This document shows positions 14,140 to 59,220 of a DNA stretch of 64,000 nucleotides, piece after piece. Origin of the DNA: an uncultured Chlamydiae bacterium. GTDB taxonomy: Bacteria; Chlamydiota; Chlamydiia; Chlamydiales; JAJFMA01. Made by a program: the position numbers and the translations under genes. Numbering within the stretch: the stretch's first letter is position 1; each line of letters opens with the position of its first letter. The stretch lies in contig CAVQMM010000001.1 in the NCBI GenBank assembly GCA_963713615.1, positions 3,488,001 to 3,552,000 on the forward strand. Direction: 5' to 3'. Under the pieces are notes generated by a model, which worked only from the letters and a program-made list of their open reading frames with translations, was not told where the DNA came from and ran no database searches.

Positions 14140-14663
14140 AGACGCCAGTTTACAAACACCATTTATGCATGCGCTTTATGGCAGCCCTACAGGCTGCTAA
14201 AACCGTTTTGGCATATACCATGGCGATGCCACATAGGCCTCAACCTAAGCCTAACAATCGTATCTCGGCGCGCAGCGCTTTGGAGTGCGGTCGCTTGCGA
14301 CCGCTTTGGGTTCCTTGCGACGGTCGTGTGCAACGGCATCACTATAATTCCCTAAGGGTAAAATAGTTAGTACATGCAGCCTTCGACGAATCCATACAAT
14401 GCCGTTTAGCATTGCCGTCCCAAGGAACGAAAAGCGGTCGCAAGCGACCGCACTCCAAAGCGCTGCGCGCCGAGATACGATTGTGAAGTCCTAAGTCATT
14501 GAGATATAAGCTCAAAAGACCTGTTAGGTTGAGGCCTATGTGGCGATGCCATGGCCTGTTGCAATATCGACCCTTCGGGCCTGGGAAGGGAATGACTCTC
14601 TCTTCATCGGCATCCGATTTTCAGGAAATTGACTTCGGAGAATCGGACTTCTGCAATTACCTC
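14140..14663 (+). mobile_element. Composite MITE (GAGGTAATTGCA family), left-truncated, with 309-bp inner element at 14232-14540
   Basis: Right TIR TTCTGCAATTACCTC; inner element with CATAGGCCTCAACCTAA TIRs and 11-bp TSD TGGCGATGCCA. Confidence 0.9.
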
Positions 14664-14696
14664 TCAAGGTCCTCATGAGGTAATTGTCCTTTTGTC

Positions 14697-14856
14697 GGCC
14701 TTATTCACCTTTGCGGTCAGTTTTCGGTCGACTGCAAAAGGATCGTCTGTCGCGTTTTGCTCCTCGGACATAGCTGGCGCTATGCCCTCGTCACAAACCA
14801 CGACATCCGACCTTTTTCGTCCGACCGAAATTCTGACCGTAAAGGTGAACAAGGCC
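14697..14856 (+). mobile_element. 160-bp MITE, copy 4
   Basis: 8-bp TSD CTTTTGTC on both sides. Confidence 0.92.
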
Positions 14857-15154
14857 CTTTTGTCTGGAGTCTATGTATCTAGGAGGTGACTTTTTTTGGG
14901 GTGATGTGGTAAAAATCTTTCTTCACATTGTTAAAGTAACATTAAAGGGGGTTGGTCGCTTATGGCCAATCGGACAACAATTTCTAAACGTATTCTAGAA
15001 GTCTCTGACGATCTTTTATATATCATTGGTTATGTTAGTCACATAGATCTGAAAAACAAGATTACGAACAAATAAAGTAGTTGTGTATGGCGAAGTCGAA
15101 AAAATCTCTTTCAAACATCATTACAAGATCTAAGTCACCAAACTTGTTAATCCT

Positions 15155-15580
15155 ATGATGGGCGTTGCTGCCCTTGAAGATATTCTTAAAGGCGCTTCTT
15201 CTGAAGTAGCTTCCAAAATACGATTGTCACAGCATCTGATCGATTGGACCTCACGTTTACAGTATTTTCGAGACCGAGAAAATGATCGTAAACAGTTTAT
15301 GGCAGATGTTGAGGCTGGAAAGCGCTCTCTTCAAATGCTCTCCTGTAACCTTCTCAGCTATCAACAAGAAGGCATGCTTCATCTGGCCTTTCAAGGACGT
15401 GCCATTTTAGCCGATGAAATGGGGCTTGGAAAGACCATCCAGGCGATTGCTCTAAAGCACTACACATTCGCGAGCCGTTTGAGGATGAGCAAAATGCCGA
15501 AGTTCTACTGGCTCTTATCATGTCCTGGATGGAAGATCTTTCCACAACCCTCGCTGAGCTCCGACTGGGAGTGGTTATGA
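15155..15580 (+). pseudogene. SNF2-family helicase fragment
   Basis: LLSYQQEGMLHL...GRAILADEMGLGKTIQAIA (Q motif and Walker A), after which homology is lost. Confidence 0.85.
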
Positions 15581-15619
15581 TGGCGTAGTGCCAAAGGCTA
15601 AATTCTAGGGAGAAAAACC

Positions 15620-16165
15620 ATGGTTTTGATGACTAAAGTTGTTCTGTACATAGCGACGAGCAAGGATGGCTATATCGCCGATGAAAATGGAAGTGTGGAT
15701 TGGTTGCCGCAGACGCTAGAGGAAACGGGTGGGCAGGACTATGGCTATCAGGAATTTTACGATTCAGTCGATGTTCTTGCAATCGGAAGAAAAACCTACG
15801 AGCAGGTATTAGGATTTGGCGATTGGCCATACGCAGGAAAGCTCTCGTATGTCTTCACACACAAGCCTATGGAATCACCAAACAAAGAGATCGAGTTTGT
15901 CTCGGGTGATATCCAACAATTTATTCGCGAATTAGAAAATCGACGATTAAAGAAACTCTGGATAGTAGGAGGGGCTGAACTTATCGATGCTTTCCATGTC
16001 CAAGGGCGAATCGATGAGTTCATCGTGACGGTTTTTCCAGCTGTTCTTAAGAGTGGAATTCCATTACGGACCGTTAAGGATGGCCTAGAAGGAGATGAAT
16101 TGATTAAGCTGCATTCAACTGTTTTTGGCGGTGAAGTCTTCCAGAATCACTATAAAAAAAAATAG
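15620..16165 (+). CDS. Dihydrofolate reductase / RibD C-terminal family protein
   Basis: KVVLYIATSKDGYIA...GRKTYEQ...LWIVGGAELI...IDEFIVTVFP.VL..GIPL. Confidence 0.92.
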   Translation: MVLMTKVVLYIATSKDGYIADENGSVDWLPQTLEETGGQDYGYQEFYDSVDVLAIGRKTYEQVLGFGDWPYAGKLSYVFTHKPMESPNKEIEFVSGDIQQFIRELENRRLKKLWIVGGAELIDAFHVQGRIDEFIVTVFPAVLKSGIPLRTVKDGLEGDELIKLHSTVFGGEVFQNHYKKK

Positions 16166-16342
16166 CGTGTTAAGGGTTCAGTAGAAGAAGGTGGGAGTGA
16201 TCCTGCTTATCATGCCGCGAAGCGATCCTGCATATCCTGTTAAGGTCCATTTTAGACGTATCTACAACATTTTTTAGCTTTTAACAAGCCACTATTTAAT
16301 GGGATGTAAAAGCTGTTTTTTTGTTAGGTCGATGGGTAGAAT

Positions 16343-17401
16343 TCACTTGCAGTCCTCGACCAGTGAGCTAACGGAAACGCCCAAGAGACGAAGTGGACGA
16401 GTATGAGCTTCCGTTTTATCCAGAAGCCTGGAGGCTACCGCAAATAGCTGTTCGACGCTGCCGATGGGCACACCTAAGCTTAAACTACGAGTTTTCGTTG
16501 TGAAGTCAGTGTAGCGCACTTTTAACGTAATTGTGCGGCCGCGGCGCTGGTGTTTTTCAAGAGTTTTTGCCAGATCTAAACAAATGTTTTCTAGCTCCGA
16601 CATCAGCAGATTTGCTTCAGAGATGTCGCGAGAGAAGGTTGTTTCTTTGCCGATGGATTTGCGAACGCGAGAGGGATTTACCAGGCGATCATCTTGGCAG
16701 ATGGCAAGTTTATAGAAAAATTCGCCCATTTTGCCAAAATGTTCCCGTAGACGGTCTTGGCCAAATCTTTTTAGATCAGCGCCAGTGAGGATTCCGAGAG
16801 CTAGAAACTTTCTGGCTGTTGCTTTGCCAACGCCATAGAATTTCTGAATAGGAAGTTGTTCTACAAAGGCAATCGCATGCTCAGGAATGATGACAGTCAG
16901 GCCATCGGGTTTTCTCCAGCCTGAGGCGAGCTTTGCTAGAAACTTATTGAAAGAAACTCCTGCACTGGCTCGTAGGCCTGTTTCGGTAAAAATCTGCTCT
17001 TTAATGCACTGCGCGAGCCGGGTAGCTGATGGCTGCCCCTTCTTATTGGTGGTCACATCCAAGTAAGCTTCATCGAGTGCTAGAGGCTCCATGAGGTCGG
17101 TATACTGCCGAAAAATGTCGTGGAGTTGCTGAGAGATGGACTTGTAGACATCGAACCGTGGGGCGATGAAAATGGCTTGTGGGCATAGTCTAAAGGCTCG
17201 ATGACATGACAGGGCAGAGTGAATTCCAAACTGACGCGCTTCATACGATGCTGTGCATACAACTCCACGCGAATAGGGCGTGCCCCCAACAACAATAGGT
17301 TTACCTCGCAGCTCAGGACGATCTCGCTGTTCAATGGAAGCATAGAAAGCGTCCATGTCGACATGAATGATTTTTCGGATGTTTTGAATGATCATGACCA
17401 T
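16343..17401 (-). CDS. dinB: DNA polymerase IV
   Basis: IIHVDMDAFYASIEQRD, ASYEARQFG, LDEAYLD, NKFLAKLAS..RKPDG. Confidence 0.97.
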   Translation of the reverse strand: MVMIIQNIRKIIHVDMDAFYASIEQRDRPELRGKPIVVGGTPYSRGVVCTASYEARQFGIHSALSCHRAFRLCPQAIFIAPRFDVYKSISQQLHDIFRQYTDLMEPLALDEAYLDVTTNKKGQPSATRLAQCIKEQIFTETGLRASAGVSFNKFLAKLASGWRKPDGLTVIIPEHAIAFVEQLPIQKFYGVGKATARKFLALGILTGADLKRFGQDRLREHFGKMGEFFYKLAICQDDRLVNPSRVRKSIGKETTFSRDISEANLLMSELENICLDLAKTLEKHQRRGRTITLKVRYTDFTTKTRSLSLGVPIGSVEQLFAVASRLLDKTEAHTRPLRLLGVSVSSLVEDCK

Positions 17402-17489
17402 ACGATAACTAATAGTGCTTTAATGATGAAAAAATTCCTCTTGTCAACAGGCCGATTTTCTGACATCTTTAAGGTCCCTATATACCGAC

Positions 17490-17891: not shown

Positions 17892-18000
17892 GGTTGATAG
17901 AAAATATCCCCTTAGGAAAAAAAGTCTAACTACAGCCGTCGCGTTGCTTTAGGATTATACATCAGGCCGATTTCAGATGATTAAATAAGATGCTTTAGTT

Positions 18001-18948: not shown

Positions 18949-19096
18949 ACAGATCTCCCGTTCCTTCAACGCTGCTTCCTCTGTGTCTCCGCGTTAAATT
19001 TCCTAGGTTAATTGCACCTTTAGATGCAATGTGCCCCAAATTCTTCCCAAGAACCGAAATCAGCTAAGTTACCATTCATAGTTGTTTTGACCTAAA

Positions 19097-19848
19097 GAGG
19101 TAATTGCAAAATTATTTGAGCCCTTGAGAATCGATTCTCGGGAAAAAAGGTTACCTTTTTTTGTGAGAAGGCGATTCTAGAGAGCTTAAGTGGTATGGCA
19201 CTATCCAGTCTGGAAAGACAGGCTTTTCTCCCTTCCCAGGCCCGAAGGGTCGATATTGCAACAGGCCATGGCATCGCCATGGTATATGCCAGGAAGGGAT
19301 TTCGCAGTCTGAAGGACTGCTACAAGACGCCAGTTTACAAACACCATTTATGCATGCGCTTTATGGCAGCCCTACAGGCTGCTAAAACCGTTTTGGCATA
19401 TACCATGGCGATGCCACATAGGCCTCAACCTAACAGGTCTTTTGAGCTTATATCTCAATGACTTAGGACTTCACAATCGTATCTCGGCGCGCAGCGCTTT
19501 GGAGTGCGGTCGCTTGCGACCGCTTTTCGTTCCTTGGGACGGCAATGCTAAACGGCATTGTATGGATTCGTCGAAGGCTGCATGTACTAACTATTTTACC
19601 CTTAGGGAATTATAGTAATGCCGTTGCACACGACCGTCGCAAGGAACCCAAAGCGGTCGCAAGCGACCGCACTCCAAAGCGCTGCGCGCCGAGATACGAT
19701 TGTTAGGCTTAGGTTGAGGCCTATGTGGCGATGCCATGGCCTGTTGCAATATCGACCCTTCGGGCCTGGGAAGGGAATGACTCTCTCTTCATCGGCATCC
19801 GATTTTCAGGAAATTGACTTCGGAGAATCGGACTTCTGCAATTACCTC
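19097..19848 (+). mobile_element. Composite MITE, 752 bp, inner element 19417-19725 in inverted orientation
   Basis: Outer TIR GAGGTAATTGCA(A/G)AA; inner 309-bp element with TSD TGGCGATGCCA. Confidence 0.92.
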
Positions 19849-19881
19849 TCAAGGTCCTCATGAGGTAATTGTCCTTTTGTC

Positions 19882-20041
19882 GGCCTTATTCACCTTTGCG
19901 GTCAGTTTTCGGTCGACTGCAAAAGGATCGTCTGTCGCGTTTTGCTCCTCGGACATAGCTGGCGCTATGCCCTCGTCACAAACCACGACATCCGACCTTT
20001 TTCGTCCGACCGAAATTCTGACCGTAAAGGTGAACAAGGCC
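19882..20041 (+). mobile_element. 160-bp MITE, copy 5
   Basis: TSD CTTTTGTC; part of the segmental duplication. Confidence 0.92.
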
Positions 20042-20339
20042 CTTTTGTCTGGAGTCTATGTATCTAGGAGGTGACTTTTTTTGGGGTGATGTGGTAAAAA
20101 TCTTTCTTCACATTGTTAAAGTAACATTAAAGGGGGTTGGTCGCTTATGGCCAATCGGACAACAATTTCTAAACGTATTCTAGAAGTCTCTGACGATCTT
20201 TTATATATCATTGGTTATGTTAGTCACATAGATCTGAAAAACAAGATTACGAACAAATAAAGTAGTTGTGTATGGCGAAGTCGAAAAAATCTCTTTCAAA
20301 CATCATTACAAGATCTAAGTCACCAAACTTGTTAATCCT

Positions 20340-20738
20340 ATGATGGGCGTTGCTGCCCTTGAAGATATTCTTAAAGGCGCTTCTTCTGAAGTAGCTTCCA
20401 AAATACGATTGTCACAGCATCTGATCGATTGGACCTCACGTTTACAGTATTTTCGAGACCGAGAAAATGATCGTAAACAGTTTATGGCAGATGTTGAGGC
20501 TGGAAAGCGCTCTCTTCAAATGCTCTCCTGTAACCTTCTCAGCTATCAACAAGAAGGCATGCTTCATCTGGCCTTTCAAGGACGTGCCATTTTAGCCGAT
20601 GAAATGGGGCTTGGAAAGACCATCCAGGCGATTGCTCTAAAGCACTACACATTCGCGAGCCGTTTGAGGATGAGCAAAATGCCGAAGTTCTACTGGCTCT
20701 TATCATGTCGTGGATGGAAGATCTTTCCACAACCCTAG
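20340..20738 (+). pseudogene. SNF2-family helicase fragment (duplicate)
   Basis: Same as 15155-15580. Confidence 0.85.
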
Positions 20739-21265
20739 CTGAGCTTCGACTGGGAGTAGTTATGATGGCGTAGTGTCAAAGGCAAATTTGTCAGGAATCA
20801 GTTAGTCAATTCAGGAGTCAGTTAGTCAATAACGTACGTTTTGACGTGGACTGAACCCCCCGCTCAAATGAGGCGCAGCGTCGTTTGTCTCTTTTTATCT
20901 AGAAGGCGCGGAGCAAGTCTGCTAAAGCAACGCCAGATCACATACGCATTAATCGGCCATTTCGTTCGGTTGATTTGCTATCCTATTCTGAAAAGGGCTC
21001 AAAAATTGTTTTATGGCATCTATAAATCCTTGATTGCGAACACGAAAGACTGCGTGCCCCGTCCTCTTAAAGCTGTATAACTTTGATCCTTGGTGTTTTT
21101 CTTGAACATGGTGGGTAAAATGCGATTGCAAAAATTTAAAAACACATCCTGCATCATCCTCACCTTCAATCATACACACAGTCAAAATCTAAAAATGTTT
21201 CTTGTCTCTAATACATAATGATAAATACTCTGGTAGCCAACATGGGTCATTTTATGAGATGGTTG

Positions 21266-21980: not shown

Positions 21981-22305
21981 TAGTCAAGCTGGGGGCTCGT
22001 CCTGGGGTGTTGATTTGAGTTTTTTTGTCTCAATCACCGCCGAGCTTCTATGCGCTCGCGCTGCGCGCCGAGTGACGATTGTGACTCCAAAGCGTAGCAC
22101 ATCTATTCGATGGTTTGTGGCAGCAAAAAGCTCCCCCAATTCTTCCCAAGAACCATCTAACAGTCCTGTGATCGCAGGTTCTCGAGTTCAGCGACGAGCT
22201 TTCACCCCTATGAATTTTGACCTTTTCCATTCTGTTGACAATCTATGAGTTTTGATTCAAAGTTGAGTCATACACGGCTAGGTTCATGGACAGCCTGGAC
22301 CTGAT

Positions 22306-22737
22306 AAGGTAATTGCAAAATTACTTGAGCCCTTGAGAATCGATTCTCGAGAAAAAAGGTTACCTTTTTTTGTGAGAAGGCGATTCTAGAGAGCTTAAGT
22401 GGTATGGCACTATCCAGTCTGGAAAGACAGGCTTTTCTCCCTTTCCAGGCCCGAAGGGTCGATATTGCAACAGGCCATGGCATCGCCATGGTATATGCCA
22501 GGAAGGGATTTCGCAGTCTGAAGGACTGCTACAAAACGCCAGTTTACAAACACCATTTATGCACGCGCTTTATGGCAGCCCTACAGGCTGCTAAAACCGT
22601 TTTGGCATATACCATGGCGATGCCATGGCCTGTTGCAATATCGACCCTTCGGGCCTGGGAAGGGAATGACTCTCTCTTCACCGGCATCCGATTTTCAGGA
22701 AATTGACTTCGGAGAATCGGACTTCTGCAATTACCTC
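22306..22737 (+). mobile_element. Outer MITE, empty 432-bp form
   Basis: Single TGGCGATGCCA target with no inner element; 4-bp TSD TGAT. Confidence 0.92.
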
Positions 22738-22751
22738 TGATGGACATAAAT

Positions 22752-22835
22752 GAGGTAATTGCAGAAGTCCTCTGAACTTTTGTAGGTAAGCGTCAATGTC
22801 GATGGTGTGTAGTACGAGACTTCTGCAAGTACCTC
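22752..22835. mobile_element. 84-bp mini-element with the same TIR family
   Basis: GAGGTAATTGCAGAAGTC ... GACTTCTGCAAGTACCTC with an unrelated interior. Confidence 0.7.
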
Positions 22836-25559: not shown

Positions 25560-25732
25560 CTGTGGCGCAGTCATTCCATGCATTCCATGACTGCGAGAAC
25601 GGTTGAAACAGTTTCTGTTTGCATCACATGGGACGTTTGTTTTGCACGTCTCCACAATTGCAACGGATTGGTCCGCAGTCATGGAATGACTGCGCCACAG
25701 GGGAGCTGTTCTAATACTTCTGCAATTACCTC
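25560..25732. repeat. REP-like inverted pair TGTGGCGCAGTCATTCCATGACTGCG followed by a lone outer-MITE TIR
   Basis: Arms at about 25560-25595 and 25673-25700; another copy at 32084-32110; TTCTGCAATTACCTC at 25718-25732. Confidence 0.7.
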
Positions 25733-29777: not shown

Positions 29778-30211
29778 GAGGTAATTGCAAAATTATTTGA
29801 GCCCTTGAGAATCGATTCTCAGAAAAAAAGGTTACCTTTTTATGCGAGAAGGCGATTCTGGAGAGCTCAAATGGCATGGCACTATCTAGTCTGGAGAGAC
29901 AGGCTTTTATCCCTTTCTAGGCCCGAAGGGTCGATATTGCAACAGGCCAGGGCATCGCCCTGGTATATGCCAAGGGGAATTTCGCAGTCTGAAAGACTGC
30001 CACAAGACGTCTGTATTCACACGCTATTTATGCAAGCGCCTTATGGCAGTCTTTCAGACTGCGAAATCCCTTCCTGGAATATACCAGGGCGATGCCCTGG
30101 CCTGTTGCAATATCGACCCTTCGGGCCTGGGAAGGGAATCGCTTATCTCTCTTCGCCGGCCGTCGAGTTTCAGGAAATTGACTTCGGAAACCGGACTTCT
30201 GCAATTACCTC
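29778..30211 (+). mobile_element. Outer MITE, empty variant (CCAGGG/CCCTGG arms)
   Basis: TIRs intact; 4-bp TSD TTAA. Confidence 0.92.
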
Positions 30212-31976: not shown

Positions 31977-32150
31977 GAAGCTATACGCATCGACCTAAGC
32001 CTTCACAATCGTATCTCGGCGCGCAGCGCTTTGGAGCCCCAACCGACTGTGTCGCCAATATCCGAAAGTAACAAGGCCTCCTATGTGGCGCAGTCATTCC
32101 ATGACTGCGGATGACCTTTGAAGTAAATAGTGACGGTTTTTTGTGGCGAT

Positions 32151-32494: not shown

Positions 32495-33248
32495 GAGGTA
32501 ATTGCCAAAATTATTTGAGCCCTTGAGAATCGATTCTTGGGAAAAAAAGGTTACCTTTTTTTGCGAGAAGGCGATTCTGGAAAGCTCAAATGGCATGGCA
32601 CTATCTAGTCTGGAGAGACAGGCTTTTATCCCTTTCCAGGCCCGAAGGGTCGATATTGCAACAGGCCATGGCATCGCCATGGTATATGCCAAAACGTGGT
32701 TCGCAGTCTGAAGGACTGCCATAAGACGTCAGTATTCACACGCTATTTATACAAGCGCCTTATGGCAGCCCTACAGGCTGCGAAATCCCTTCCTGGCATA
32801 TACCATGGCGATGCCACATAGGCCTCAACCTAAGCCTAACAATCGTATCTCGGCGCGCAGCGCTTTGGAGTGCGGTCGCTTGCGACCGCTTTGGGTTCCT
32901 TGCGACGGTCGTGTGCAACGGCATTACTATAATTCCCTAAGGGTAAAATAGTTAGTACATGCAGCCTTCGACGAATCCATACAATGCCGTTTAGCATTGC
33001 CGTCCCAAGGAACGAAAAGCGGTCGCAAGCGACCGCACTCCAAAGCGCTGCGCGCCGAGATACGATTGTGAAGTCCTAAGTCATTAAGATATAAGCTCAA
33101 AAGACCTGTTAGGTTGAGGCCTATGTGGCGATGCCATGGCCTGTTGCAATATCGACCCTTCGGGCCTGGAAAGGGAATGGCTCTCTCTTCACCGGCATCC
33201 GATTTTCAGGAAATTGACTTCGGAAAATCGGACTTCTGCAATTATCTC
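32495..33248 (+). mobile_element. Composite MITE with inner element 32817-33125
   Basis: Outer TIRs slightly degenerate; inner TSD TGGCGATGCCA. Confidence 0.92.
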
Positions 33249-41000: not shown

Positions 41001-41753
41001 GAGGTAATTGCAGAAGTCCGATTTTCCGAAGTCAATTTCCTGAAAATCGGATGCCGGTGAAGAGAGAGTCATTCCCTTCCCAGGCCCGAAGGGTCGATAT
41101 TGCAACAGGCCATGGCATCGCCACATAGGCCTCAACCTAACAGGTCTTTTGAGCTTATATCTCAATGACTTAGGACTTCACAATCGTATCTCGGCGCGCA
41201 GCGCTTTGGAGTGCGGTCGCTTGCGACCGCTTTTCGTTCCTTGGGACGGCAATGCTAAACGGCATTGTATGGATTCGTCGAAGGCTGCATGTACTAACTA
41301 TTTTACCCTTAGGGAATTATAGTGATGCCGTTGCACACGACCGTCGCAAGGAACCCAAAGCGGTCGCAAGCGACCGCACTCCAAAGCGCTGCGCGCCGAG
41401 ATACGATTGTTAGGCTTAGGTTGAGGCCTATGTGGCATCGCCATGGTATATGCCAAAACGGTTTTAGCAGCCTGTAGGGCTGCCATAAAGCGCATGCATA
41501 AATGGTGTTTGTAAACTGGCGTCTTGTAGCAGTCCTTCAGACTGCGAAATCCCTTCCTGGCATATACCATGGCGATGCCAGGGCCTGTTGCAATATCGAC
41601 CCTTCGGGCCTGGGAAGGGAGAAAAGCCTGTCTTTCCAGACTGGATAGTGCCATACCACACTTAAGCTCTCCAGAATCGCCTTCTCACAAAAAAAAGTGA
41701 TTTTTTTTCAAAGAATCGATCCATGAGAGCCCAAATACTTCTGCAATTACCTC
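41001..41753 (-). mobile_element. Composite MITE (reverse) with inner element 41124-41432
   Basis: Same architecture as 32495-33248. Confidence 0.92.
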
Positions 41754-43789: not shown

Positions 43790-46387
43790 TTAATTAGATG
43801 CGCGAGCTTGAAGCCTTTGTGAAAATCCGTGCCAAAATGCCTGGTCAATAGTGGTCTCGATTCTTTCACGATGATATTCAAGAGAGCGCTCTAACCATGC
43901 ATGGTCTTCAGAGGTAGCTTGAGCATCGGAGCCATTCCATAGGAGCCATCGAATATGATTGCGATGATTGTGCATTGCTTGGTCTTCAGGAGATAGCGAG
44001 TTTATAGCAGCTTGAAGAGACTCTTGCATCATGTCCCAAAGCTCAGAGGAACCCTGGTCGTTTTTGTCCAGAAAGGTAGCTATGTCAGATAGGCATCGGC
44101 CCGTTTTTGCGAAAGCTTTTATCACCATTGCAAGAGCTTTGGCATTAGTTACTGCTTGTTGGGGTAGCCCAGTGCTCTCCACCAAAGTAGCTACCACATG
44201 GGGATCTAGCTCTGCAATGAATTGGAGACTTTGTGTGCTGAATGGTTTAGCAACACGTTCATGTCTGAGAATACCTGTAAGGCCACTAAGCTTAAAAGGA
44301 AGGATTGAATCGCTGTCAATGGGTTTCAGGTGAGGGGATCCGTATGCATCGTAGGAAATTAGGATGTCCCCAGGATGTTGGATCTCATTGTATAGAAGAA
44401 CATTCATAAGTGCGATTTTTTGAAACTCATCAAGAGATACACTATTGAGAAGAGCGTGATTTTCCAGCAGATAGGCTTCTCGAGAAGGGGCTAATCCTGG
44501 AGTGTTTTGTGGATGAAGATCAACGAGAGGTTTTGCATTAGGTACCCATTTTTGCAGATAGCCGCGTTTGGTTTGCAAGCGCGGTGGGGTATTGAGTATT
44601 TCAGCTTCTACGTCGACGAATTGGTCGCTTTGTAGCTCTACAATAGCCCCAGCGGGAAGATTAGCAATGCTTCCAAAATCCAATAGCTTAGCCAGGTGCT
44701 GGCGTATGCTAGAGCTCCCTTGTTCAAAACTAGACATTTGATGAAAGTAGATATCTTCAAACGTATGGTCTGGACCACGTTTTTCTGGGAGGCGGTTGCT
44801 AGGACCATTATTTCTCTCGTCTTCAGGTTTAAAAACAGCCACATTTTCGTTATGATGATCGACGACAAGGTAGGCACTAGTTCCGACAACAGGGACTAGC
44901 CGACCATGATTTGCTAAAACCTCATGGACTTTTTTTATGAGGGGTTTGGCTTTGCTTTCCACTTGACGAATGCGCTCATGAGCACGAGCTAGGATATTAG
45001 CAGAGATTCTGTTGTTTTCACTAAGCTTCGAGACATAACTGTTGAGTTGCTGAGAAAATTCGGACCAAAATACGCGGTTAACTGCAGCCTCGATCCTTTG
45101 GGCATCATGTGTAAGATAGTTTTCTAGCCACTTTTGATCATCTGAGGTGACATTTTTTTTGCTCCACAAAAGCCGACGAAGATAGTTCCGATGTTTCCTT
45201 TTGGCTTGGTCCTCTGAAGAGAGACTCTCTATGGCAACGGTTTCCGCCTGTTGCATCATTTGCCATAAGGCGGAGTCTTCTTCGCCCTTGCTAGCTGCAA
45301 AGTTATAAATATGAGATAGCTGAAGTCCTGCCTTAGCAAAGGCTTTTATCACGAGTGTAAGGGCTTTAGCGTTGGTGACGGCCTGCGGAGGAAGGTTTAC
45401 TTGTTGCACCAGAGCAGCGACGACTTCGGGATCTAGTTCTTCAATAAAGTGCAGGCTTTGGTTGCTGAACGCCACCTTAGCTCGGCGATGTGCCAAAATA
45501 CTTCGGAGCTTATTTAGTTTAAAAGGGAGGATAGCATCGCAATCAATAGGTGTAAGATGAGGCTCCCTTTGATCGTCAAAAGTTATTAAAAGATTTCCCT
45601 GGCGAGGTTCTGAATGATATAACGCCATATCCATGAGGTTGCCGGGATGACGATCTTCATTGTACATCAGGATGTCTAGGAGGGCGACTTTTTGATATTC
45701 ATCTAGAGATATTGTGTCTAAAAGTGGGTGATTGTCAAATTGATAGGCTTCCTCGGGAGGCGCTTGTCCGGCGATGGTCTTGGGATGTAATTCGGGGAAG
45801 GATTTAGCATTAGGTACCCATACCTGTAAATATCCTCGCTTACGCTGTTTGCGGGGGGTGATACCGAGTTTTTCGGCTTCAAGATCGACAAACTGATCGC
45901 TCTCAAGATAGGTGACAGTTCCAAGGGGAACGTTGGCTGTGCTGCCAAAGTCCAGCAGCTTTGCCAGATGTTGACGAGCCGTTGTCTGTCCTTGTTCAAA
46001 GGCGTTCATTTGATGGAAATGAATATCGTCGAGCGTGCTGTCTTGACGTCGGTGATCTGGCATGCGGTTATTTGGACCCCAGTCGCGTTCGTCTTCTGGT
46101 TTGAAAAGAGCCACGGTATTGCCATTACGGTCCAAAACGCGATAGGCGCCGCTATATCCATGCATGGGTTTCAGTCGCCCCTTATTTGCCAAGGCGTGTT
46201 GTACTTGCTTTAAGAGAGGGGCTGCGCTCTCTTCTATCTCACGGATACGATTCAAGGCGCGAGTTTCTGCATCTTCCGCCTGCTCACTACAGATGCCATC
46301 TTTGCATACGACAAAAGAATCGGCAGCTAAATTAATTGTTGAATTAAAAAGTAATGAAATGAATAGTATGACGTGATAAATATGCAT
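43790..46387 (-). CDS. Exported protein with two tandem PI3/PI4-kinase-like domains
   Basis: Domain 1: ALFKPEDE, YLQVWV, NEDRHPGN, PIDCD. Domain 2: AVFKPEDE, YLQKWV, NEIQHPGD, PIDSD. Confidence 0.85.
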   Translation of the reverse strand: MHIYHVILFISLLFNSTINLAADSFVVCKDGICSEQAEDAETRALNRIREIEESAAPLLKQVQHALANKGRLKPMHGYSGAYRVLDRNGNTVALFKPEDERDWGPNNRMPDHRRQDSTLDDIHFHQMNAFEQGQTTARQHLAKLLDFGSTANVPLGTVTYLESDQFVDLEAEKLGITPRKQRKRGYLQVWVPNAKSFPELHPKTIAGQAPPEEAYQFDNHPLLDTISLDEYQKVALLDILMYNEDRHPGNLMDMALYHSEPRQGNLLITFDDQREPHLTPIDCDAILPFKLNKLRSILAHRRAKVAFSNQSLHFIEELDPEVVAALVQQVNLPPQAVTNAKALTLVIKAFAKAGLQLSHIYNFAASKGEEDSALWQMMQQAETVAIESLSSEDQAKRKHRNYLRRLLWSKKNVTSDDQKWLENYLTHDAQRIEAAVNRVFWSEFSQQLNSYVSKLSENNRISANILARAHERIRQVESKAKPLIKKVHEVLANHGRLVPVVGTSAYLVVDHHNENVAVFKPEDERNNGPSNRLPEKRGPDHTFEDIYFHQMSSFEQGSSSIRQHLAKLLDFGSIANLPAGAIVELQSDQFVDVEAEILNTPPRLQTKRGYLQKWVPNAKPLVDLHPQNTPGLAPSREAYLLENHALLNSVSLDEFQKIALMNVLLYNEIQHPGDILISYDAYGSPHLKPIDSDSILPFKLSGLTGILRHERVAKPFSTQSLQFIAELDPHVVATLVESTGLPQQAVTNAKALAMVIKAFAKTGRCLSDIATFLDKNDQGSSELWDMMQESLQAAINSLSPEDQAMHNHRNHIRWLLWNGSDAQATSEDHAWLERSLEYHRERIETTIDQAFWHGFSQRLQARASN

Positions 46388-49595: not shown

Positions 49596-50228
49596 TTACC
49601 ACAGAGAACGCGGAGACGCCGAGATAGGAGAGAGAGGAAAGAATTTTTGGTTTATTATTTTGGATCGCCCATGTGGTATATTCCTCAGCCCATTTTAGGA
49701 TAGGACTAGTGGACGATATGAGGTAATTTCAGAAGTCCGATTTTCCGAAGTCAATTTCCTGAAAATCAGATGCCGGTGAAGAGAGAGTCATTCCCTTCCC
49801 AGGCCCGAAGGGTCGATATTGCAACAGGCCATGGCATCGCCATGGTATATGCCAAAACGGTTTTAGCAGCCTGTAGGGCTGCCATAAAGCGCATGCATAA
49901 ATGGTGTTTGTAAACTGGCGTCTTGTAGCAGTCCTTCAGACTGCGAAATCCCTTCCTGGCATATACCATGGCGATGCCATGGCCTGTTGCAATATCGACC
50001 CTTCGGGCCTGGGAAGGGAGAAAAGCCTGTCTTTCCAGACTGGATAGTGCCATACCACTTAAGCTCTCCAGAATCGCCTTCTCACAAAAAAAAGTGATTT
50101 TTTTTCCAAAGAATCGATCCATGAGAGCCCAAATACTCCTGAAATTACCTCATATGGACGAATCCAAAATAAAAACAAAAAAAAATCCTCTCTCTCCTAT
50201 CTCGGCGTCTCCGCGTTCTCTGTGGTAA
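49596..50228. repeat. Inverted-repeat pair (TTACCACAGAGAACGCGGAGACGCCGAGATAGGAGAGAGAGGA) enclosing a MITE
   Basis: 43-bp perfect arms starting at 49596 and ending at 50228; related lone arm at about 29360-29395. Confidence 0.85.
49720..50151 (-). mobile_element. Outer MITE, empty 432-bp form (reverse)
   Basis: 4-bp TSD ATAT. Confidence 0.92.
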
Positions 50229-50682: not shown

Positions 50683-51528
50683 ATGAATTTACATTCCATA
50701 GAAAAGCAGCAACACGTAGCTGAAAACAGGAATACAGAAAGAAACTCATATAAATCCGCCTCACCACAACTTCAAGGTGTCGCTACCGGAGCGACGGCAG
50801 GGGCTGTAGAGGCCTTGGCGCTCTACTGGACTAATATCAGGCGTGTCGCTGCCCAGCTGGATAAGCCTATGCCCACAACGCTGCGCGGACACTATGCCGG
50901 TCTTCCATTAGGCATGGCCCTGAACATTCCTTTGTTTGCGGCCATCCATGGCACCAAGATGGCGTTTGCTAGCGATGACGATGAAGTGCCAAGCCCTGAG
51001 AAGAAGGTTGCTATTGCACTCTGCTCTGCGGCTAATGCGACCTTCTTCTTGACGCCCATGGAGAACGTTCTGGTGAAGATGAAGTTACACCAGCAAGGCT
51101 GGCAACCCGTTATGAAGACCATGTATCGCGATCAAGGGCTACGCCCCTTCTATCATGCGACGTCTTTAGCGTATGCCCGAAACGGAGCTTATTGTCTCGG
51201 TCTATACGTTTTGACACCTCAGCTGTCCAAGGCTTTGGGAGATCCCGAAGGCAAAGACCCCAAAAAGGTCATCGCCGCGGCCAGTACTTCGGGAGCCTTG
51301 TGTTGTATGGCGACACACCCCTTAGATGTGGCCATGACGCACATACGTAGCAAGCCGCAGATGACCTTAAAGGCTATTTGTGAGGATGTTTTTGCGAAAA
51401 AGGGCTGGAAGGGCTTTACGGCGGGCCTAGCGCCACGGTTGGTGCGCATTGGAGGAGGGAGCGGTCTGGTTACTGGCGTCTTTATGGCATGTGACCATCT
51501 GATGACCAAAGCGGAGGGTAAGCAATGA
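50683..51528 (+). CDS. Mitochondrial carrier family (SLC25-like) protein
   Basis: Three-repeat layout with GATAGAVEA, TPMENVLVKMK, DQGLRPFYHA, HPLDVAMTHIR, GWKGFTAGLAPRLVR; AGGAG RBS. Confidence 0.85.
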   Translation: MNLHSIEKQQHVAENRNTERNSYKSASPQLQGVATGATAGAVEALALYWTNIRRVAAQLDKPMPTTLRGHYAGLPLGMALNIPLFAAIHGTKMAFASDDDEVPSPEKKVAIALCSAANATFFLTPMENVLVKMKLHQQGWQPVMKTMYRDQGLRPFYHATSLAYARNGAYCLGLYVLTPQLSKALGDPEGKDPKKVIAAASTSGALCCMATHPLDVAMTHIRSKPQMTLKAICEDVFAKKGWKGFTAGLAPRLVRIGGGSGLVTGVFMACDHLMTKAEGKQ

Positions 51529-53315: not shown

Positions 53316-55205
53316 ATGATACCACTACCCATTAATGCATTTACTTCCACTGGACTTTATTTCAACGGCTTCTTGTTTGCAGCATCTGTGCTTTTACTTC
53401 TCGCACTCTATCTGGTTCGGTGGAAGTCGGAGTCTCTCTCCACTGCACTTTGGCTGGGTGCTCATGCCCTTGCCGCTTTAGGGACATGGCTAATCACAGA
53501 CGATGCCATTGCACTCATTCCCGCTCTGGCGTTGAATTTCTTGCTGTTATTAACGCTGCGTCACATCACCCCGATAACTTCGACCTTTGGCCTATTTTTT
53601 GCCGTTATCATGGTCGCTCCAGCGGTATATGCCTTGGTGTGGCTTTTTGAGCTCTTGGGCTTCTTAATAGGCTTTGAGGGGATAGGCTGGGGTATATCTC
53701 TTGTAGGGATATGTCTCGCTTTCATCTTTAGTGTGTTGATTGTTGCTAATAGTACCATGGGCACTTGGATTACTCTGGTGCGCTTTTCGGAGCTTTATTT
53801 TTTGTTTCCCAGAGGAAAAGCTGCAGAAAAGCTTGCTAACGCACCAAGGACTTCCTATCCATGGGTATCCATTCACGTTCCTTGCTATGCTGAGCCCCCT
53901 GAGTTGGTGATTAAGACTCTAGATGCCCTAGCAGCTCTGGAGTATCCTAATTTTGAAGTTATCGTCATCGATAACAACACCAAAGAGGTTAGCCTTTGGA
54001 AGCCTCTCGAGGAGCGTTGTACTCAGTTAGGTGAACGATTTCGCTTCTATCACGTCGATCCTTTGCAAGGGGCCAAAGCCGGTGCCCTCAATCTAGCGAC
54101 AACGTTAACCTCTCCTCAGGTGGAGGTGATCGCGGTCATTGATGCTGACTTTGTCGTCCAACCGGACTTTTTGGCGCGTAATGTTGGCTATTTCGATAAT
54201 CCCAAAACAGGCTTTGTGCAGACCTGCCACGACTATCGCGACTGGCAGAAAAGCCGCTACCAAACAGCCTGCTATTATGAGTATGAAGTGCACTTTAAGC
54301 TGGAATTGCCTGGCCTTAGTGAATGGGATACCGCCTACACAGTAGGGACGATGTGTCTTGTTCGACGCCGGGCTCTAGAAAGCGCTGGAGGCTGGTCGGA
54401 GTGGTGTCTTACAGAAGATTCCGAGCTTGCTGTGCGACTGCACGCTTTGGGTTATGAGGGCTATAACCTCAAGGAGACTTTCGGCAGAGGGATCATCCCT
54501 GAGACCTTTGAGGGCTACAAAAAGCAGCGTTTTCGTTGGAGCGCGGGGCCTGTTCAGCAGATTCAGCAACACTGGCGCCTTTACCTGCCTTGGGCCAAAA
54601 ATAGCCTGCGCCCTGTCCAGAAGATCGCAGAGATTTTCCATAGCATGTCGCTATTCTTTAGCGAATTGATGTATGTAGCTTTTAACCTGCCAATACTCTT
54701 GGTTTTTGTTTGGTTATCGATCACTAAAGGGCTCGTATTTCCTGTTCCGACAGCCGTGTTAGTGCTGATTCCTGTGGCAATATTACGCAATATTATCTGC
54801 AATAGAATCCATGTGGGGCTTCTAGGGGGCGGCTGGCGTGAGTATGTGCTGTCAGCGATGGCTCTACGTTCTCTGGGCTTTACAAGGCTAAAAGCCTTCT
54901 ATATGGCTTGGTTGCCTGTAAAGCTAGCTTGGAAACGCACCGACAAATTCCCTGCTAAGTCTTGTATTTCGAGGGCATTTCTCTCCTGCCGCGGCGAACT
55001 GATCCTGGTCACTCTATACCTTGTGATAGCGGCATTCATTGCTCCCTATGCGGATTTTTCTCATCCTGATGTTCTATGCCTCACCTTCTTGGGCTTCTTA
55101 AATCAGGCCCTAACATTCCTCTGTGCCCCTCTGATGGCGCTATATTCCGAGCGCGAGCTGGCCAAAGGTGAGCGTGAGCAGGTGCCCCTGGAGCGGTTCG
55201 TGTGA
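53316..55205 (+). CDS. Processive GT2 glycosyltransferase (cellulose-synthase / NdvB-like)
   Basis: VSIHVPCYAEPP, KAGALN, IDAD, TED, QRFRW; flanking TM helices. Confidence 0.92.
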   Translation: MIPLPINAFTSTGLYFNGFLFAASVLLLLALYLVRWKSESLSTALWLGAHALAALGTWLITDDAIALIPALALNFLLLLTLRHITPITSTFGLFFAVIMVAPAVYALVWLFELLGFLIGFEGIGWGISLVGICLAFIFSVLIVANSTMGTWITLVRFSELYFLFPRGKAAEKLANAPRTSYPWVSIHVPCYAEPPELVIKTLDALAALEYPNFEVIVIDNNTKEVSLWKPLEERCTQLGERFRFYHVDPLQGAKAGALNLATTLTSPQVEVIAVIDADFVVQPDFLARNVGYFDNPKTGFVQTCHDYRDWQKSRYQTACYYEYEVHFKLELPGLSEWDTAYTVGTMCLVRRRALESAGGWSEWCLTEDSELAVRLHALGYEGYNLKETFGRGIIPETFEGYKKQRFRWSAGPVQQIQQHWRLYLPWAKNSLRPVQKIAEIFHSMSLFFSELMYVAFNLPILLVFVWLSITKGLVFPVPTAVLVLIPVAILRNIICNRIHVGLLGGGWREYVLSAMALRSLGFTRLKAFYMAWLPVKLAWKRTDKFPAKSCISRAFLSCRGELILVTLYLVIAAFIAPYADFSHPDVLCLTFLGFLNQALTFLCAPLMALYSERELAKGEREQVPLERFV

Positions 55206-55216
55206 TTCCAGGACAT

Positions 55217-55392
55217 TGCCCTGGCCTGTTGCAATATCGACCCTTCGGGCCTGGGAAGAGGTAAAAGCCTGTGTCTCCAGAGGCAGATAGTGCCGTCGCT
55301 TGAGCTCTCCAGAATGGCCTTCTCGCAAAAAAAGGTAACCTTTTTTCCTGAGAATCGATTCTCAAGGGCTCAAATAATTTTGCAATTACCTC
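55217..55392 (-). mobile_element. Left part of outer MITE (truncated)
   Basis: TIR and first palindrome arm only. Confidence 0.85.
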
Positions 55393-55448
55393 TAAAGGAC
55401 CTAGAAGGCACACACTATCAGTCCTCTATGTTGTTTATGTTCCTGTGC

Positions 55449-56924
55449 TCATTTAGTTTGAAACAAGAAATCCAACTCACCAGGGCGCCTGGTGGCACTT
55501 TTTCTGTCTCCCTCATCCTTAACGTCTTTTCTTTCGGCCAGGATACGATTGATGTTATCACTATTTTGATTATCTAATGATGAGCGTGACTCCATGAAAC
55601 GAGTGTTCTTGGCAGGATCTCTAAAATTAGGCACAAACTTCTTGATAAACCGAGTTAGATCATCCGGTAAATAGGTACTATGCTTAAACTGTTCCCCATC
55701 CGTGAGCGTGAAGTTCATCTCAAAAAAGGGCTTCGGTAGCTCTTCGAAAGGTTTGTTATTTAATTGTGGAACTACCCATTTACCCTTGACCCTGATTTCT
55801 AAAAAGCCCTTATCAACACGGAAACCGATGATATTCGGTTGATTAAAATGCGCAGCTATTTGGAGGGAGGTCATGTTCTCTGGTTGGACAATGGCATGGG
55901 GAGCTATCATCTTCATGATGGCAATGGCGAGTGGACTCTCGTTATCAAGGTTCTCACGGTTTTTCGTTTCCCTATGTTGCTTCTCAAATACATAGCTGTC
56001 ACCAGCCTTCTTTATGATCAAGGCATGATTTTCCCAGCCATTGGGTTTGGCAACAGTACCATCCGGCCCAATTATAGACTTTAGAGTGTTCCCATCAGAT
56101 GTATAGTGCCATGGTAGCCTCTTATCGGGGCTAAAAGTGACCACTACAGAATTGGGGTATTCCATGTAAAATAGAAAAAGCTCTTTATGCTGGGAAGCAT
56201 CAACATCTAGGTCATCAGACTCTTCTATGATCACAATGTTTCGCTCTGTAAGAGCATTAGGATTGTTCTGCTCAACCACAAGTGGAAACAAGCGTTTGAG
56301 GATTTGGTTATTGACAGCATTGGTCAGGCCTGAAGCTGCCATAGCACCAACAAGCTCGCTATAGGTCGTGTAGGTGGTTTGACAGTTAACCGTTCTGTTG
56401 GCGAAATAGGCCACGCTAGCTGTGCCACCGATCAATGTGATAAAGAATGATGCGCCTTTAGACAAGTTCTTTAAACCCGCATGCCTTACAGCTTCTGCTG
56501 AAGCAGCTAGAGAGGCTCCGTACAAAACCTCGTCAGCGAGCTCACTGGTAAGCCAAGAGGGCATGACGCCCGTTGCATCCAGAGCTGTCGGCATGAGACT
56601 AAAGACCGCCGCCGTAGTCACAGCTTTGCCGGTTTCCCTCCAGTCTACGTCTACCATTGGAGAAGGCTTGCAAACATCCCATACTGCCTTGACGGAAGTG
56701 AACATAACACCAGGTAGAACATATTCTAGGGGATTCGCTATGACATGATTGATTGCTGATAGTCCTTGAGGAGCTTGGCATATTGTTTGGACAATTTTGG
56801 TCGAGCCTATGTCGTCAGCGGCTCTCCAAACAAGACCATTTAAAGCGCCACCTAAGACACCAATTCCAATACCTGTTGACCAGGTTTGTTTGACTTCATT
56901 GAAAACTGATCGTAAAACATCCAT
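55449..56924 (-). CDS. Hypothetical membrane-associated protein (paralog of 57044-58420)
   Basis: Shared N-terminal hydrophobic domain: GIG.LGG.LNGL..RA.D.I...PSWLT..L.D..LYG. Confidence 0.8.
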   Translation of the reverse strand: MDVLRSVFNEVKQTWSTGIGIGVLGGALNGLVWRAADDIGSTKIVQTICQAPQGLSAINHVIANPLEYVLPGVMFTSVKAVWDVCKPSPMVDVDWRETGKAVTTAAVFSLMPTALDATGVMPSWLTSELADEVLYGASLAASAEAVRHAGLKNLSKGASFFITLIGGTASVAYFANRTVNCQTTYTTYSELVGAMAASGLTNAVNNQILKRLFPLVVEQNNPNALTERNIVIIEESDDLDVDASQHKELFLFYMEYPNSVVVTFSPDKRLPWHYTSDGNTLKSIIGPDGTVAKPNGWENHALIIKKAGDSYVFEKQHRETKNRENLDNESPLAIAIMKMIAPHAIVQPENMTSLQIAAHFNQPNIIGFRVDKGFLEIRVKGKWVVPQLNNKPFEELPKPFFEMNFTLTDGEQFKHSTYLPDDLTRFIKKFVPNFRDPAKNTRFMESRSSLDNQNSDNINRILAERKDVKDEGDRKSATRRPGELDFLFQTK

Positions 56925-57043
56925 TACATTTCCTTAAAATTAGGTATTGTTTATACAAGATCTAAGGTTGATAATGCACTATTTGCGATTCTTGCAAAAG
57001 CATTGTTGTGAGGCGTCAGTGCAAGCGCGATGTCAACAAGAGA

Positions 57044-58420
57044 TCATTCATCCATTATATTTTCGCATTTCAAGTGCTTTTTTAAAGCCTGAATGAAATC
57101 GCTGTGTTCATCGGCTGTCTCTTCAATATGCGGATGAGAACTGTTATGGATTTTGTAGACCATGTTGTTATTGATTTTGGTAACTCTTACAGATTGACCC
57201 TGCTCGCAAGGAGGATCGGGGAGATTTAAGAAATTATCAAAAGATTTGTTATAGTAATTCTTGCTCTCTTGACAGAACAAGCGCATAGTAACCTTGCCTT
57301 GGTAATTCTTCCAGATCTCTAACGTACCAAGCTTGTTAAGTTCGCCTAGGATAACAAGCATCATGATCTGATCTGGAGACAGAGTGGGTATTGGGCTGGG
57401 AGCCTCGAGGCAGGTCTGCAAGAACCTTCGAAGATCCGCGATTTCATTGTCTGACATGTTCGAACAAGTTCTATTTTTGCTATTCCAAAGTGTAAAGTGG
57501 AGTTGATCGTTCTGCCAAATATGCACTTCATAGGGAGAATGGGGAATAGCTGGGTATTTTATCTTATCAGCTTCTGCAATAAGCCCTTCGGGAAGGTAGT
57601 CAGCTTCTCCATTGGGATTAATGTAGCTCCAGGCATAGGTGTTGGCTTGGTTATCATGGACGAGTTTTAGCAAGTGCCCATTAGTGAAATACTGGCTTAA
57701 GAGATGGATGTTTTGGCCCTGCGCATGATGGTGTTCTTCGTTAGGGATGACGGGCTTGAATCGTTCGTGGACCATGGAGTAAAAAACGTTGGTGATGATT
57801 TTACCTGCCGCTGAAGCTATGAGGGCCCCCAGGATATTGGCATAGACCATTTGTTCGGATGGACATTCGTAGATGCTGTCGGTAAAAAAGGCAGCATTAA
57901 TGATTCCGAATGGAATGGAGGTGAGCATGATCATACGGCTAACCGAATGCTGCCCTATGAAGCTCGCAGCTTTTGCCGTCGAATTCAGAGCCATGCCATA
58001 GAGAGCCCGATCGACGAGGTCATTGGTGAGCCACGAAGGCACTATCCCTGATGCTTCTAGTAGAGTGGGTAGGATTGCATAGGTTAGGGATTCTATGCCG
58101 CATCTTACAGCCTCCGGTGTATCTCTATGGGGGGCCGCTTGGAATAGGTCATAGATGGCTTTAGCTGCAACCAAGGAGATGCCTTCAGGGTACTTCAAGG
58201 GAGTAGCAAGTATTGCTTGGAGGGCTTGTAGCGATCCCGCGCTGGCAGAAGATCTCCCACTACTGAGTAATTGAGAGATGTAGGTTTCATCTATACCATC
58301 CAAGGCCCGCATAGAGAGACCATTGAGAACTCCACCCAAGGCTCCTATACCGGAAACTGTCGTAAAAGTTTGCTTGCACAAGCTTAATAATGTTGTCGTG
58401 ACATTGACTGTAAAATTCAT
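57044..58420 (-). CDS. Hypothetical membrane-associated protein (paralog of 55449-56924)
   Basis: Same N-terminal domain; divergent C-terminal half. Confidence 0.8.
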   Translation of the reverse strand: MNFTVNVTTTLLSLCKQTFTTVSGIGALGGVLNGLSMRALDGIDETYISQLLSSGRSSASAGSLQALQAILATPLKYPEGISLVAAKAIYDLFQAAPHRDTPEAVRCGIESLTYAILPTLLEASGIVPSWLTNDLVDRALYGMALNSTAKAASFIGQHSVSRMIMLTSIPFGIINAAFFTDSIYECPSEQMVYANILGALIASAAGKIITNVFYSMVHERFKPVIPNEEHHHAQGQNIHLLSQYFTNGHLLKLVHDNQANTYAWSYINPNGEADYLPEGLIAEADKIKYPAIPHSPYEVHIWQNDQLHFTLWNSKNRTCSNMSDNEIADLRRFLQTCLEAPSPIPTLSPDQIMMLVILGELNKLGTLEIWKNYQGKVTMRLFCQESKNYYNKSFDNFLNLPDPPCEQGQSVRVTKINNNMVYKIHNSSHPHIEETADEHSDFIQALKKHLKCENIMDE

Positions 58421-58551
58421 ACGATTCCGTAAGGTATATTAGTTATGTGATAGAGACTGCCATTTTAAATGCTGCAAGTTAGTTAGTCAATCTGAAGTGT
58501 TTTTTATTAATGTCATGTAGTGGATGGCTGTTGGGCTAAAATGAACAAAAT

Positions 58552-59220
58552 GAGGTAATTGCAAAATTATTTGAACCCTTGAGAATCGATTCTCAGGAAA
58601 AAAGGTTACCTTTTTTTGCGAGAAGGCCATTCTGGAGAGCTCAAACGACATGGCACTATCTGGCTCTGGAGACACAGGCTTTTACCTCTTCCCAGGCCCG
58701 AAGGGTCGATATTGCAACAGGCCAGGGCATCGCCCTGGTATATGCCAAGGGGGATTTCGCAGTCTGAAAGACTGCCACAAGACGTCTGTATTCACACGCT
58801 ATTTATGCAAGCGCCTTGTGGCAGCCCTACGAGGCTGACAGGAAATATCCCTTGGCATATACCAGGGCGATGCCCCATAGGCCTCAACCTAAGCCTAACA
58901 ATCGTATCTCGGCGCGCAGCGCTTTGGAGTGCGGTCGCTTGCGACCGCTTTGGGTTCCTTGCGACGGTCGTGTGCAACGGCATCACTATAATTCCCTAAG
59001 GGTAAAATAGTTAGTACATGCAGCCTTCGACGAATCCATACAATGCCGTTTAGCATTGCCGTCCCAAGGAACGAAAAGCGGTCGCAAGCGACCGCACTCC
59101 AAAGCGCTGCGCGCCGAGATACGATTGTGAAGTCCTAAGTCATTAAGATATAAGCTCAAAAGACCTGTTAGGTTGATGCCTATGGGGCGATGCCCTGGCC
59201 TGTTGCAATATCGACCCTTC
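58552..59220 (+). mobile_element. Composite MITE variant with inner element 58876-59184, interrupted at 59220 by IS110
   Basis: Inner TSD GGGCGATGCCC; the outer element stops at GACCCTTC where other copies continue GGGCCTGG. Confidence 0.9.

Follow-up and report, generated by a model that had tools for sequence, protein, structure and literature searches.

Nested miniature transposons with REP doublets as cargo at fixed repeat positions in an uncultured chlamydial genome

We analysed a 64,000-nt window (G000:C1:3488001-3552000) of the genome of an uncultured Chlamydiae bacterium (G000; 3.97 Mb in three contigs, 99.1% complete by markers), in which two types of miniature inverted-repeat transposable element (MITE), each carrying a pair of repetitive extragenic palindromes (REPs), are nested, the second inside the first, and are accompanied by insertion sequences (IS). 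Coordinates are 1-based positions in the window unless prefixed G000:C1. Nine copies of the outer element, MITE-A, full or partial, are located at 14140-59220, as a first-pass annotation of the sequence had counted, and the five copies of the inner element, MITE-B, are each 309 bp long and each bordered by a perfect 11-bp target duplication (Table 1). The 4-bp duplications TGAT, TTAA and ATAT claimed in that annotation are present around the copies at 22306, 29778 and 49720, respectively; the remaining complete copies (19097, 32495 and 41001) have mismatched flanks. Its equation 432+309+11=752 is exact for the composite at 19097, the others being 753 and 754 bp long. The copy at 22306 begins with AAGGT, TTTCA stands in the repeat of the copy at 49720, and one end of the inner copy at 58876 reads CATAGGCATC. 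The boundary of the last MITE-A at 59220 is an IS110 insertion and not decay, and this IS110 is in turn interrupted by an IS21 element. Rfam gave no match within the window.

Table 1. Positions of the nested elements, their repeats and associated insertion sequences in the window.
Position	Strand	Feature
14140..14663	+	MITE-A without its left part, with MITE-B at 14232-14540
19097..19848	+	MITE-A with MITE-B (19417-19725), 752 bp; flanks TAAA/TCAA mismatched
22288..22305	+	R0, GGAC repeat of 9-bp period at the MITE-A target
22306..22737	+	MITE-A, 432 bp, duplication TGAT; empty form for MITE-B
22448..22500	+	REP1 arm 1: IS110 target hairpin and hairpin whose central 11 bp are duplicated by MITE-B
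22603..22655	-	REP1 arm 2
22752..22835	+	GAGG-ended mini element, 84 bp, without REP1
25565..25732	-	Lone GAGG end adjoining a REP4 pair
29778..30211	+	MITE-A, 434 bp, duplication TTAA
32495..33248	+	MITE-A with MITE-B, 754 bp; mismatched flanks
32817..33125	+	MITE-B, 309 bp, IS231-type ends; 11-bp duplication at 32806-32816 and 33126-33136
32839..32894	+	REP2 arm 1 within MITE-B; at other loci this arm is the target of IS66 (8 bp at 32879-32886), of IS1634 and of MITE-C
33016..33069	-	REP2 arm 2 in MITE-B
41001..41753	-	MITE-A with MITE-B (41124-41432), 753 bp; mismatched flanks
49720..50151	-	MITE-A, 432 bp, duplication ATAT
55205..55392	-	Left end of MITE-A with a portion of REP1 arm 1
58552..59220	+	MITE-A with MITE-B (58876-59184), cut by IS110 in REP1 arm 2
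59221..64000	+	IS110 in REP1, extending beyond the window end; left non-coding end with bridge-RNA-like guides
60262..63524	-	IS21 in the IS110 gene

Genome-wide, MITE-A is present in about 130 and the 309-bp MITE-B in about 85 copies, and together they make up 2.7% of the genome. Motif searches returned 297 matches for the REP of MITE-A (REP1), 462 for that of MITE-B (REP2) and 251 for the CAT end of MITE-B, against 0, 0 and 3 in the reversed genome, so that these copies are not due to chance; a GAGG pattern for the ends of MITE-A, with two mismatches allowed, gave 161 matches in the control and was therefore excluded from copy numbers. The nested copies are real: short-read contigs of the public runs X1, X3 and X5 stop at the same MITE-A/MITE-B junctions, contigs of X1, X3, X4 and X5 break at the junctions of MITE-B with IS66, and read depth is in the tens on the repeats versus about 2-4 on unique DNA. 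An assembly artefact, the refutation that the first-pass annotation had itself named, therefore has a practically negligible probability. No available read set spans a whole locus and unique DNA is covered in patches, as an artefact would allow, but the copies differ in sequence, flanks and duplications, and the shared breakpoints recur in contigs of runs from several studies, with flanks that exist at other loci of this genome. One public run could derive from the same source sample as the assembly. No reads joined across a skipped whole MITE at these loci, at a cover too thin for this to be meaningful.

The core of MITE-A is about 80% identical over 229 bp, spacer included, to REP1 doublets downstream of a gene for a 150-aa Y1 transposase (G000:C1:3243412). 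This protein has an IS200-like score of 57.6 versus a cut-off of 55, stays under the cut-off for REP-associated tyrosine transposases (RAYTs) and is not a canonical RAYT (class 2 TnpA-REP); its motif Y---Q--HH is that of subclass 1.2 in PMC6006769. Since 14 REP1 arms follow the gene, the locus is, judged by its sequence, one that works like a REP locus. For REP2, three arms lie either side of a 176-aa RAYT gene (G000:C1:3256780; 83.9 bits versus the NF047646 cut-off of 80, Y---NP motif). The earlier assignment of the palindromes to RAYT-type REPs is borne out in that both pairs flank Y1 transposase genes here, the REP1 gene not being a canonical RAYT. Single REP arms fold no better than shuffled sequences (z about -1.4). 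A second Y1 gene of the subclass 1.2 type (L002:1000-2230, G000:C1:3873041) has its own flanking repeat family, REP3, with 21 arms, one pair of which lies in a GAGG-ended shell, and a further repeat, REP4 (25565-25695, 32088-32103), has 188 matches versus 0 in the control.

Most REP1 arms have MITE-A flanks (256 of 297); of the rest, 15 belong to the gene-locus type, 9 adjoin IS110 and 17 are truncated or of another kind. The 462 REP2 arms are divided among MITE-B (162), a further element named MITE-C (28), other CAT-ended elements (17), GAGG-ended shells (27) and free copies (228), which places 234 of them within MITEs. The proposed hitch-hiking of REP doublets in MITEs is thus supported for REP1 and for about half of REP2. 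The REP2 21-mer is identical in 163 of 164 copies borne by MITE-B versus 84 of 220 free copies. The MITE-B spacer occurs in 82 near-identical copies inside MITE-B and has 15 free relatives at 76-89% identity, from which we conclude that MITE-B carries one member of an older free REP2 family. The shells are not tied to one cargo: GAGG-ended shells also bear REP2, REP3 or REP4 pairs, one with a MITE-A left end holds a REP3 doublet, and GAGG-ended MITEs in related genomes enclose other palindromes, so that the cargo is interchangeable. The four-level nesting first described needs recasting, as two of its levels, the REP pairs, are cargo that shows no insertion scar. The system is also deeper than first described: a repeat level lies below, and four more element families lie above.

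MITE-B has a precise target. Of its 172 ends, 168 adjoin the 11-mer at the centre of the REP1 hairpin, two adjoin degenerate versions of it and two, those of one copy, lie elsewhere; the 11-bp duplication is perfect in 71 of 83 pairs and occurs in five variants that match the host allele. Either REP1 arm can be the host. Among sixty copies of 309 bp, each departs from the majority sequence at 0-4 bases, and their host MITE-As are 84-100% alike. Duplicated host alleles and near-identical copies in divergent hosts indicate that separate insertions took place in a recent burst. One allele of the MITE-B duplication fits GGG(N)5CCC, which we take to be the target of IS231A. Elements of about 2.2 kb with MITE-B ends, considered as candidates for the full element, proved to be MITE-B with IS1634 inside.

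REP2, the cargo of MITE-B, is in turn the target of further elements, each at its own position. Of 18 IS66 copies, 17 occupy the same 8-bp site of the REP2 hairpin, where host-specific alleles are duplicated; the 8-bp duplication is present in 17 of 18 copies, with four 8-mer alleles counting both strands. These copies have GTAA ends and encode TnpA, TnpB and TnpC above the cut-offs of NF033517, NF033819 and NF047593. Thirteen of the 17 copies located in REP2 share three junction contexts. In a paralog that is 66% identical, 12 ends lie outside the REP2 hairpin, and relatives of IS66 elsewhere in the order (28 loci, 12 with both ends and 6 with a duplication) are in no case found in a strong hairpin. 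IS1634 (NF033559 above cut-off) occupies a second REP2 site in all eight copies; a 6-bp repeat, in line with the 5-6-bp duplications of this family, was seen by eye in six of seven full copies, and the AT-rich target tract described in PMC2266710 is lacking. A third site is used by MITE-C, with 24 of 29 ends located there and a 10-bp duplication in three copies.

All nine IS110 insertions share a single position in REP1; one of the nine is located at the locus of the Y1 gene. The left non-coding end of IS110 contains guide matches of 7, 7, 7 and 5 nt in the order left target, right target, left donor and right donor guide (LTG, RTG, LDG, RDG), and none of 20000 shuffles had all four; the guides are thus predicted to be bridge-RNA-like. 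The left guide fits the REP1 allele of the gene locus better than that of MITE-A.

MITE-A itself lies in a tandem repeat. A G[AT]C motif stands at position -8 of 168 of 214 MITE-A ends versus 2.7% at random, and is repeated 9 bp farther out in 61 cases versus 0.08%; GGAC arrays of 9-bp period flank the element, and 145 such arrays exist genome-wide versus 6 in the control, 47 of them beside a GAGG end. The same arrays bracket two four-helix-bundle genes (TIGR02436 and TIGR04258) at C1:1850843 and C1:3217661, loci also labelled L273:1410-2075 and L274:1335-2190. Long open frames are touched by 5 of 168 MITE-A flanks versus 45% of random sites, and outside G000 the -8 motif is present at 31 of 48 distinct GAGG-type ends. 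With 135 left and 125 right ends in the genome, 99 left-right, 6 left-left and 2 right-right pairs can be formed, and a perfect 4-bp duplication is found in 34 of 76 non-tandem copies versus a permutation mean of 4.5 and a maximum of 13. Tandem arrays of 4-9 copies lie at G000:C1:476526-478848, 1173286-1175135, 2273505-2280484 and 2600817-2603020, three of the four having a 43-bp spacer of GGAC repeats in common. One MITE-A (G000:C1:1137410-1138825) is split by about 1 kb with open reading frame fragments, which presumably resemble a group II intron protein.

The first-pass annotation had likened the outer element to the IS5/IS1182 types. Terminal inverted repeats with a short duplication of fixed length agree with this, but the label could not be confirmed, since no full element with such a transposase was found in G000 or in the collections scanned. 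Scans with GAGG ends yielded at least 114 metagenome stretches and 106 viral stretches, as well as matches in 18 of the 401 genomes scanned from the order, in 8 of 151 from another phylum and in 4 of 5 named genomes; these were MITEs and chance matches in coding sequences, and none was a transposase-bearing element. Elements of about 3 kb with MITE-A ends, a candidate autonomous form, were rejected as they are MITE-A with MITE-B and IS66 inside.

For the inner element, the IS4-type call of the annotation was confirmed. The ends of MITE-B and MITE-C match the signature CAT-------AA--TAA of the IS231 subgroup (Table 1 of PMC2266710), and a scan of other genomes gave at least 97 loci with a MITE-B-type end, among them full IS4 elements of 1.4-1.5 kb in Planctomycetota, a Parachlamydiaceae genome and Methylovulum. 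Transposases of three of these loci (L035, L047 and L051) exceed the NF033592 cut-off, and the YREK residues Y344, R347, E351 and K358 are invariant in five IS231-like proteins. For the one protein searched, members of the IS231A family were the best plasmid matches at 29% identity, which is not a close similarity, so that we call these elements IS231-like only. Among the matches listed, a hairpin stem of at least 4 bp abuts 55 of 102 distinct CAT ends versus 25% in shuffles; 20 of 32 closed CAT-ended elements have a duplication, which in 16 of them is 19-21 bp long and covers the hairpin; and 8 of 18 short CAT-ended elements contain an internal inverted repeat that is unlike the target and REP-like by appearance. 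Duplications of 19-21 bp over a REP-like hairpin, twice the usual IS4 length, were seen in many phyla (L035, L047, L059, L075, L083, L096, L101, L108, L128). A Parachlamydiaceae IS231-like element (L051, L061, L098) lies in short tandem repeats with a 9-bp duplication and no hairpin. End-sequence searches of plasmids and phages returned chance-level matches only. A third CAT-ended MITE type of 390 bp with another target is present at G000:C1:1195150-1195539.

From the observed architecture, target positions, duplications and counts, we infer enzymes, an order of events and a recognition of structure. We consider it quite probable that MITEs which home to repeats and are mobilised in trans multiply the REPs they carry and, with them, the target of the next element. 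Gene-less shells with REP doublets, located at fixed repeat positions, would likely be copied in trans by DDE transposases, and each MITE burst would have multiplied the target of the following element. An IS4 transposase of IS231-like type, since lost or missing from the assembly, may have moved MITE-B and MITE-C, and some DDE transposase MITE-A, while IS110 could reach REP1 via a bridge RNA. The DDE enzymes might read hairpin or repeat structure, which would keep insertions out of genes. Divergence suggests that free REP doublets forming hairpins (REPINs) came first, followed by MITE-A, the recent MITE-B burst and then IS66 and IS1634. The REP pairs could have entered the shells in two ways: either shells captured REPINs, or a RAYT placed REPINs into shells. 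Most REP1 and about half of the REP2 copies are thus likely to have spread by riding in transposons and not by their own enzyme.

Several observations weigh against this interpretation. Nearly half of the REP2 arms (228 of 462) are free. DUF772, DDE_Tnp_1_6 and DUF4096 transposases were not found in the genome, nor was an IS231-like transposase or a fragment of one by protein query and six-frame profile search of the 99.1% complete assembly, and a full GAGG-ended element was absent from G000, the 401 genomes of the order, the 151 genomes of another phylum and the metagenome and viral matches listed. Identical composites of MITE-A and MITE-B do not occur at different loci (n=27), so that there is no sign of movement of the nested unit. 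Gene order differs in the genus-level relatives, which are about 70% identical (ten stretches compared), so that no orthologous empty site is available, and only 9 of 40 copies have an empty-like target elsewhere in this genome. Of 299 relatives scored against the 754-bp composite, 5 had matches, all short and the size of a REP, and three genomes from its own genus had none. Of the 76 non-tandem MITE-A copies, 42 have no perfect duplication; hybrids that join two left or two right ends make up 8 of the 107 pairs, and the four tandem arrays hold 23 copies. Lastly, MITE-B is flipped between two segments whose following 600 bp are identical, so that its orientation alone is no proof of an independent insertion.

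Mismatched flanks, hybrids and tandem arrays show that recombination clearly contributed and made part of the MITE-A copy number. It is improbable, though, that a few founder insertions spread mainly by homologous recombination or gene conversion, with the specificity of MITE-B, IS66 and IS1634 simply inherited. Such a process would account for the mismatched flanks and hybrids of MITE-A, for the 43-bp spacer common to three arrays, for the MITE-B flipped within a segmental duplicate and for the 13 REP2-located IS66 copies in three junction contexts. Conversion from one donor would not yield host alleles duplicated on both sides of MITE-B in five variants and of IS66 in four, and the same end types are found in hairpins and GGAC repeats of unrelated genomes. 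Recombination is thus insufficient, because it leaves the allele-specific duplications unexplained.

We regard it as very unlikely that the entire composite behaves as an oversized REPIN moved by the REP-associated Y1 transposases, with the terminal repeats as passengers. In favour, intact-looking Y1 genes are present for both REP families, whereas a DDE partner of MITE-A or MITE-B was not found. The element boundaries, however, coincide with terminal inverted repeats and duplications of 4, 10 and 11 bp, which are DDE signatures; to our knowledge, HUH enzymes leave no target duplication. In addition, the same ends enclose unrelated cargo here and elsewhere, and elsewhere also IS4 transposase genes.

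Amplification of REPs by trans-mobilised MITEs would build on three facts that are already known, namely that IS target REPs, that a REP-bearing MITE is hit by IS1111, and that IS231 cassettes are trans-mobilised. Among the closest parallels is QMITE2/IS1111 of Coxiella burnetii (PMC5896051, PMC10969869), likewise a REP-containing MITE with an IS110-family element in its REP in 20 of 21 copies. That system has two levels. In G000, by contrast, there are two tiers of MITE, each of which inserts into one repeat family and brings a different one along; Y1 genes of the same genome are linked to both cargoes, and three kinds of DDE element also target the cargo. REP-targeting elements given in PMC1525189 are IS1397, ISKpn1 and ISPsy8 (IS3), IS621, ISPa11, ISPpu9/10 and ISRm19 (IS110) and ISRm22 (IS4). 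They share the fixed position in the palindrome with the elements described here, and mismatched duplications were there blamed on recombination between copies; the text consulted lists IS3, IS110, IS4, IS256 and IS5 without IS66 or IS1634, and its elements are autonomous and have no REP cargo. IS621 (PMC11208160) likewise inserts into a REP and has its guides in the same order, those for the two target halves before those for the two donor halves and left before right in each, with a different REP and core; the guides here are predicted from sequence.

The IS231 subgroup of IS4 and its derivative MIC231 combine the ends CAT-------AA--TAA, duplications of 10-12 bp, the YREK motif and trans-mobilised derivatives (PMC2266710 and PMC6199540). 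IS231 is described as nearly confined to Firmicutes, with genes as cargo, and many transposase pairs in PMC2266710 exceed 50% identity, whereas the relatives described here are 29% identical to IS231A, occur in many phyla at REP-like hairpins and often have a duplication of 19-21 bp. In REPIN/RAYT systems, inverted extragenic doublets are located beside a single-copy Y1 gene (bioRxiv 10.1101/2021.07.10.451892 and PMC6006769); similarly, the free REP2 copies are diverse and doublets are arrayed by a Y1 gene. In the preprint, REPINs and MITEs are distinct classes, with duplication rates about 1000-fold apart, whereas here REPINs lie inside MITEs and form clonal bursts. Subclass 1.2 is described in PMC6006769 as generally without terminal secondary structures, and the REP1 gene has the motif of that subclass. 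In the open-access literature text we consulted, neither a relay of several tiers, nor homing of IS66 or IS1634 to REPs, nor IS231-like duplications of 19-21 bp are described.

How REP sequences reach high copy numbers is a pertinent question, given the very low rate that has been inferred for duplication by RAYTs. The genome studied here offers a second, countable route, with most of REP1 and half of REP2 inside DDE-type MITEs, and REPs borne by MITEs would inflate duplication rates estimated from REP diversity. It also provides intact candidates for site-specific transposases in IS66 and IS1634, families absent from the REP-targeting lists found, with the non-targeting IS66 paralog as an internal control, and points to an IS4 clade in which duplication length seems to track the hairpin. 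We are evenly divided on whether the relay is general in environmental bacteria, where an unclassified IS231-like clade would cut around REP hairpins (with up to 19-21 bp duplicated), a GAGG-ended clade would home to repeats of four-helix-bundle cassettes, and both would routinely shed MITEs with a different REPIN. If so, REP families could reach hundreds of copies without a RAYT and seed targets for IS66, IS1634 and IS110.

The window also contains a 1.4-kb duplication (14140-15604 and 19325-20788) that includes a fragment of an SNF2 gene as well as a repeat of 161 bp; MITE-B is inverted between its two copies. The 161-bp repeat, which lies next to two MITE-A copies, recurs at 3436, 4664 and 12181, and many matches to it (19873-20049), at 69-74% identity, are present in a genome of the same genus (G167). 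Genes with eukaryote-like domains in the window encode a PI3/PI4-kinase-like protein (43790-46387) and a mitochondrial carrier protein (50683-51528).

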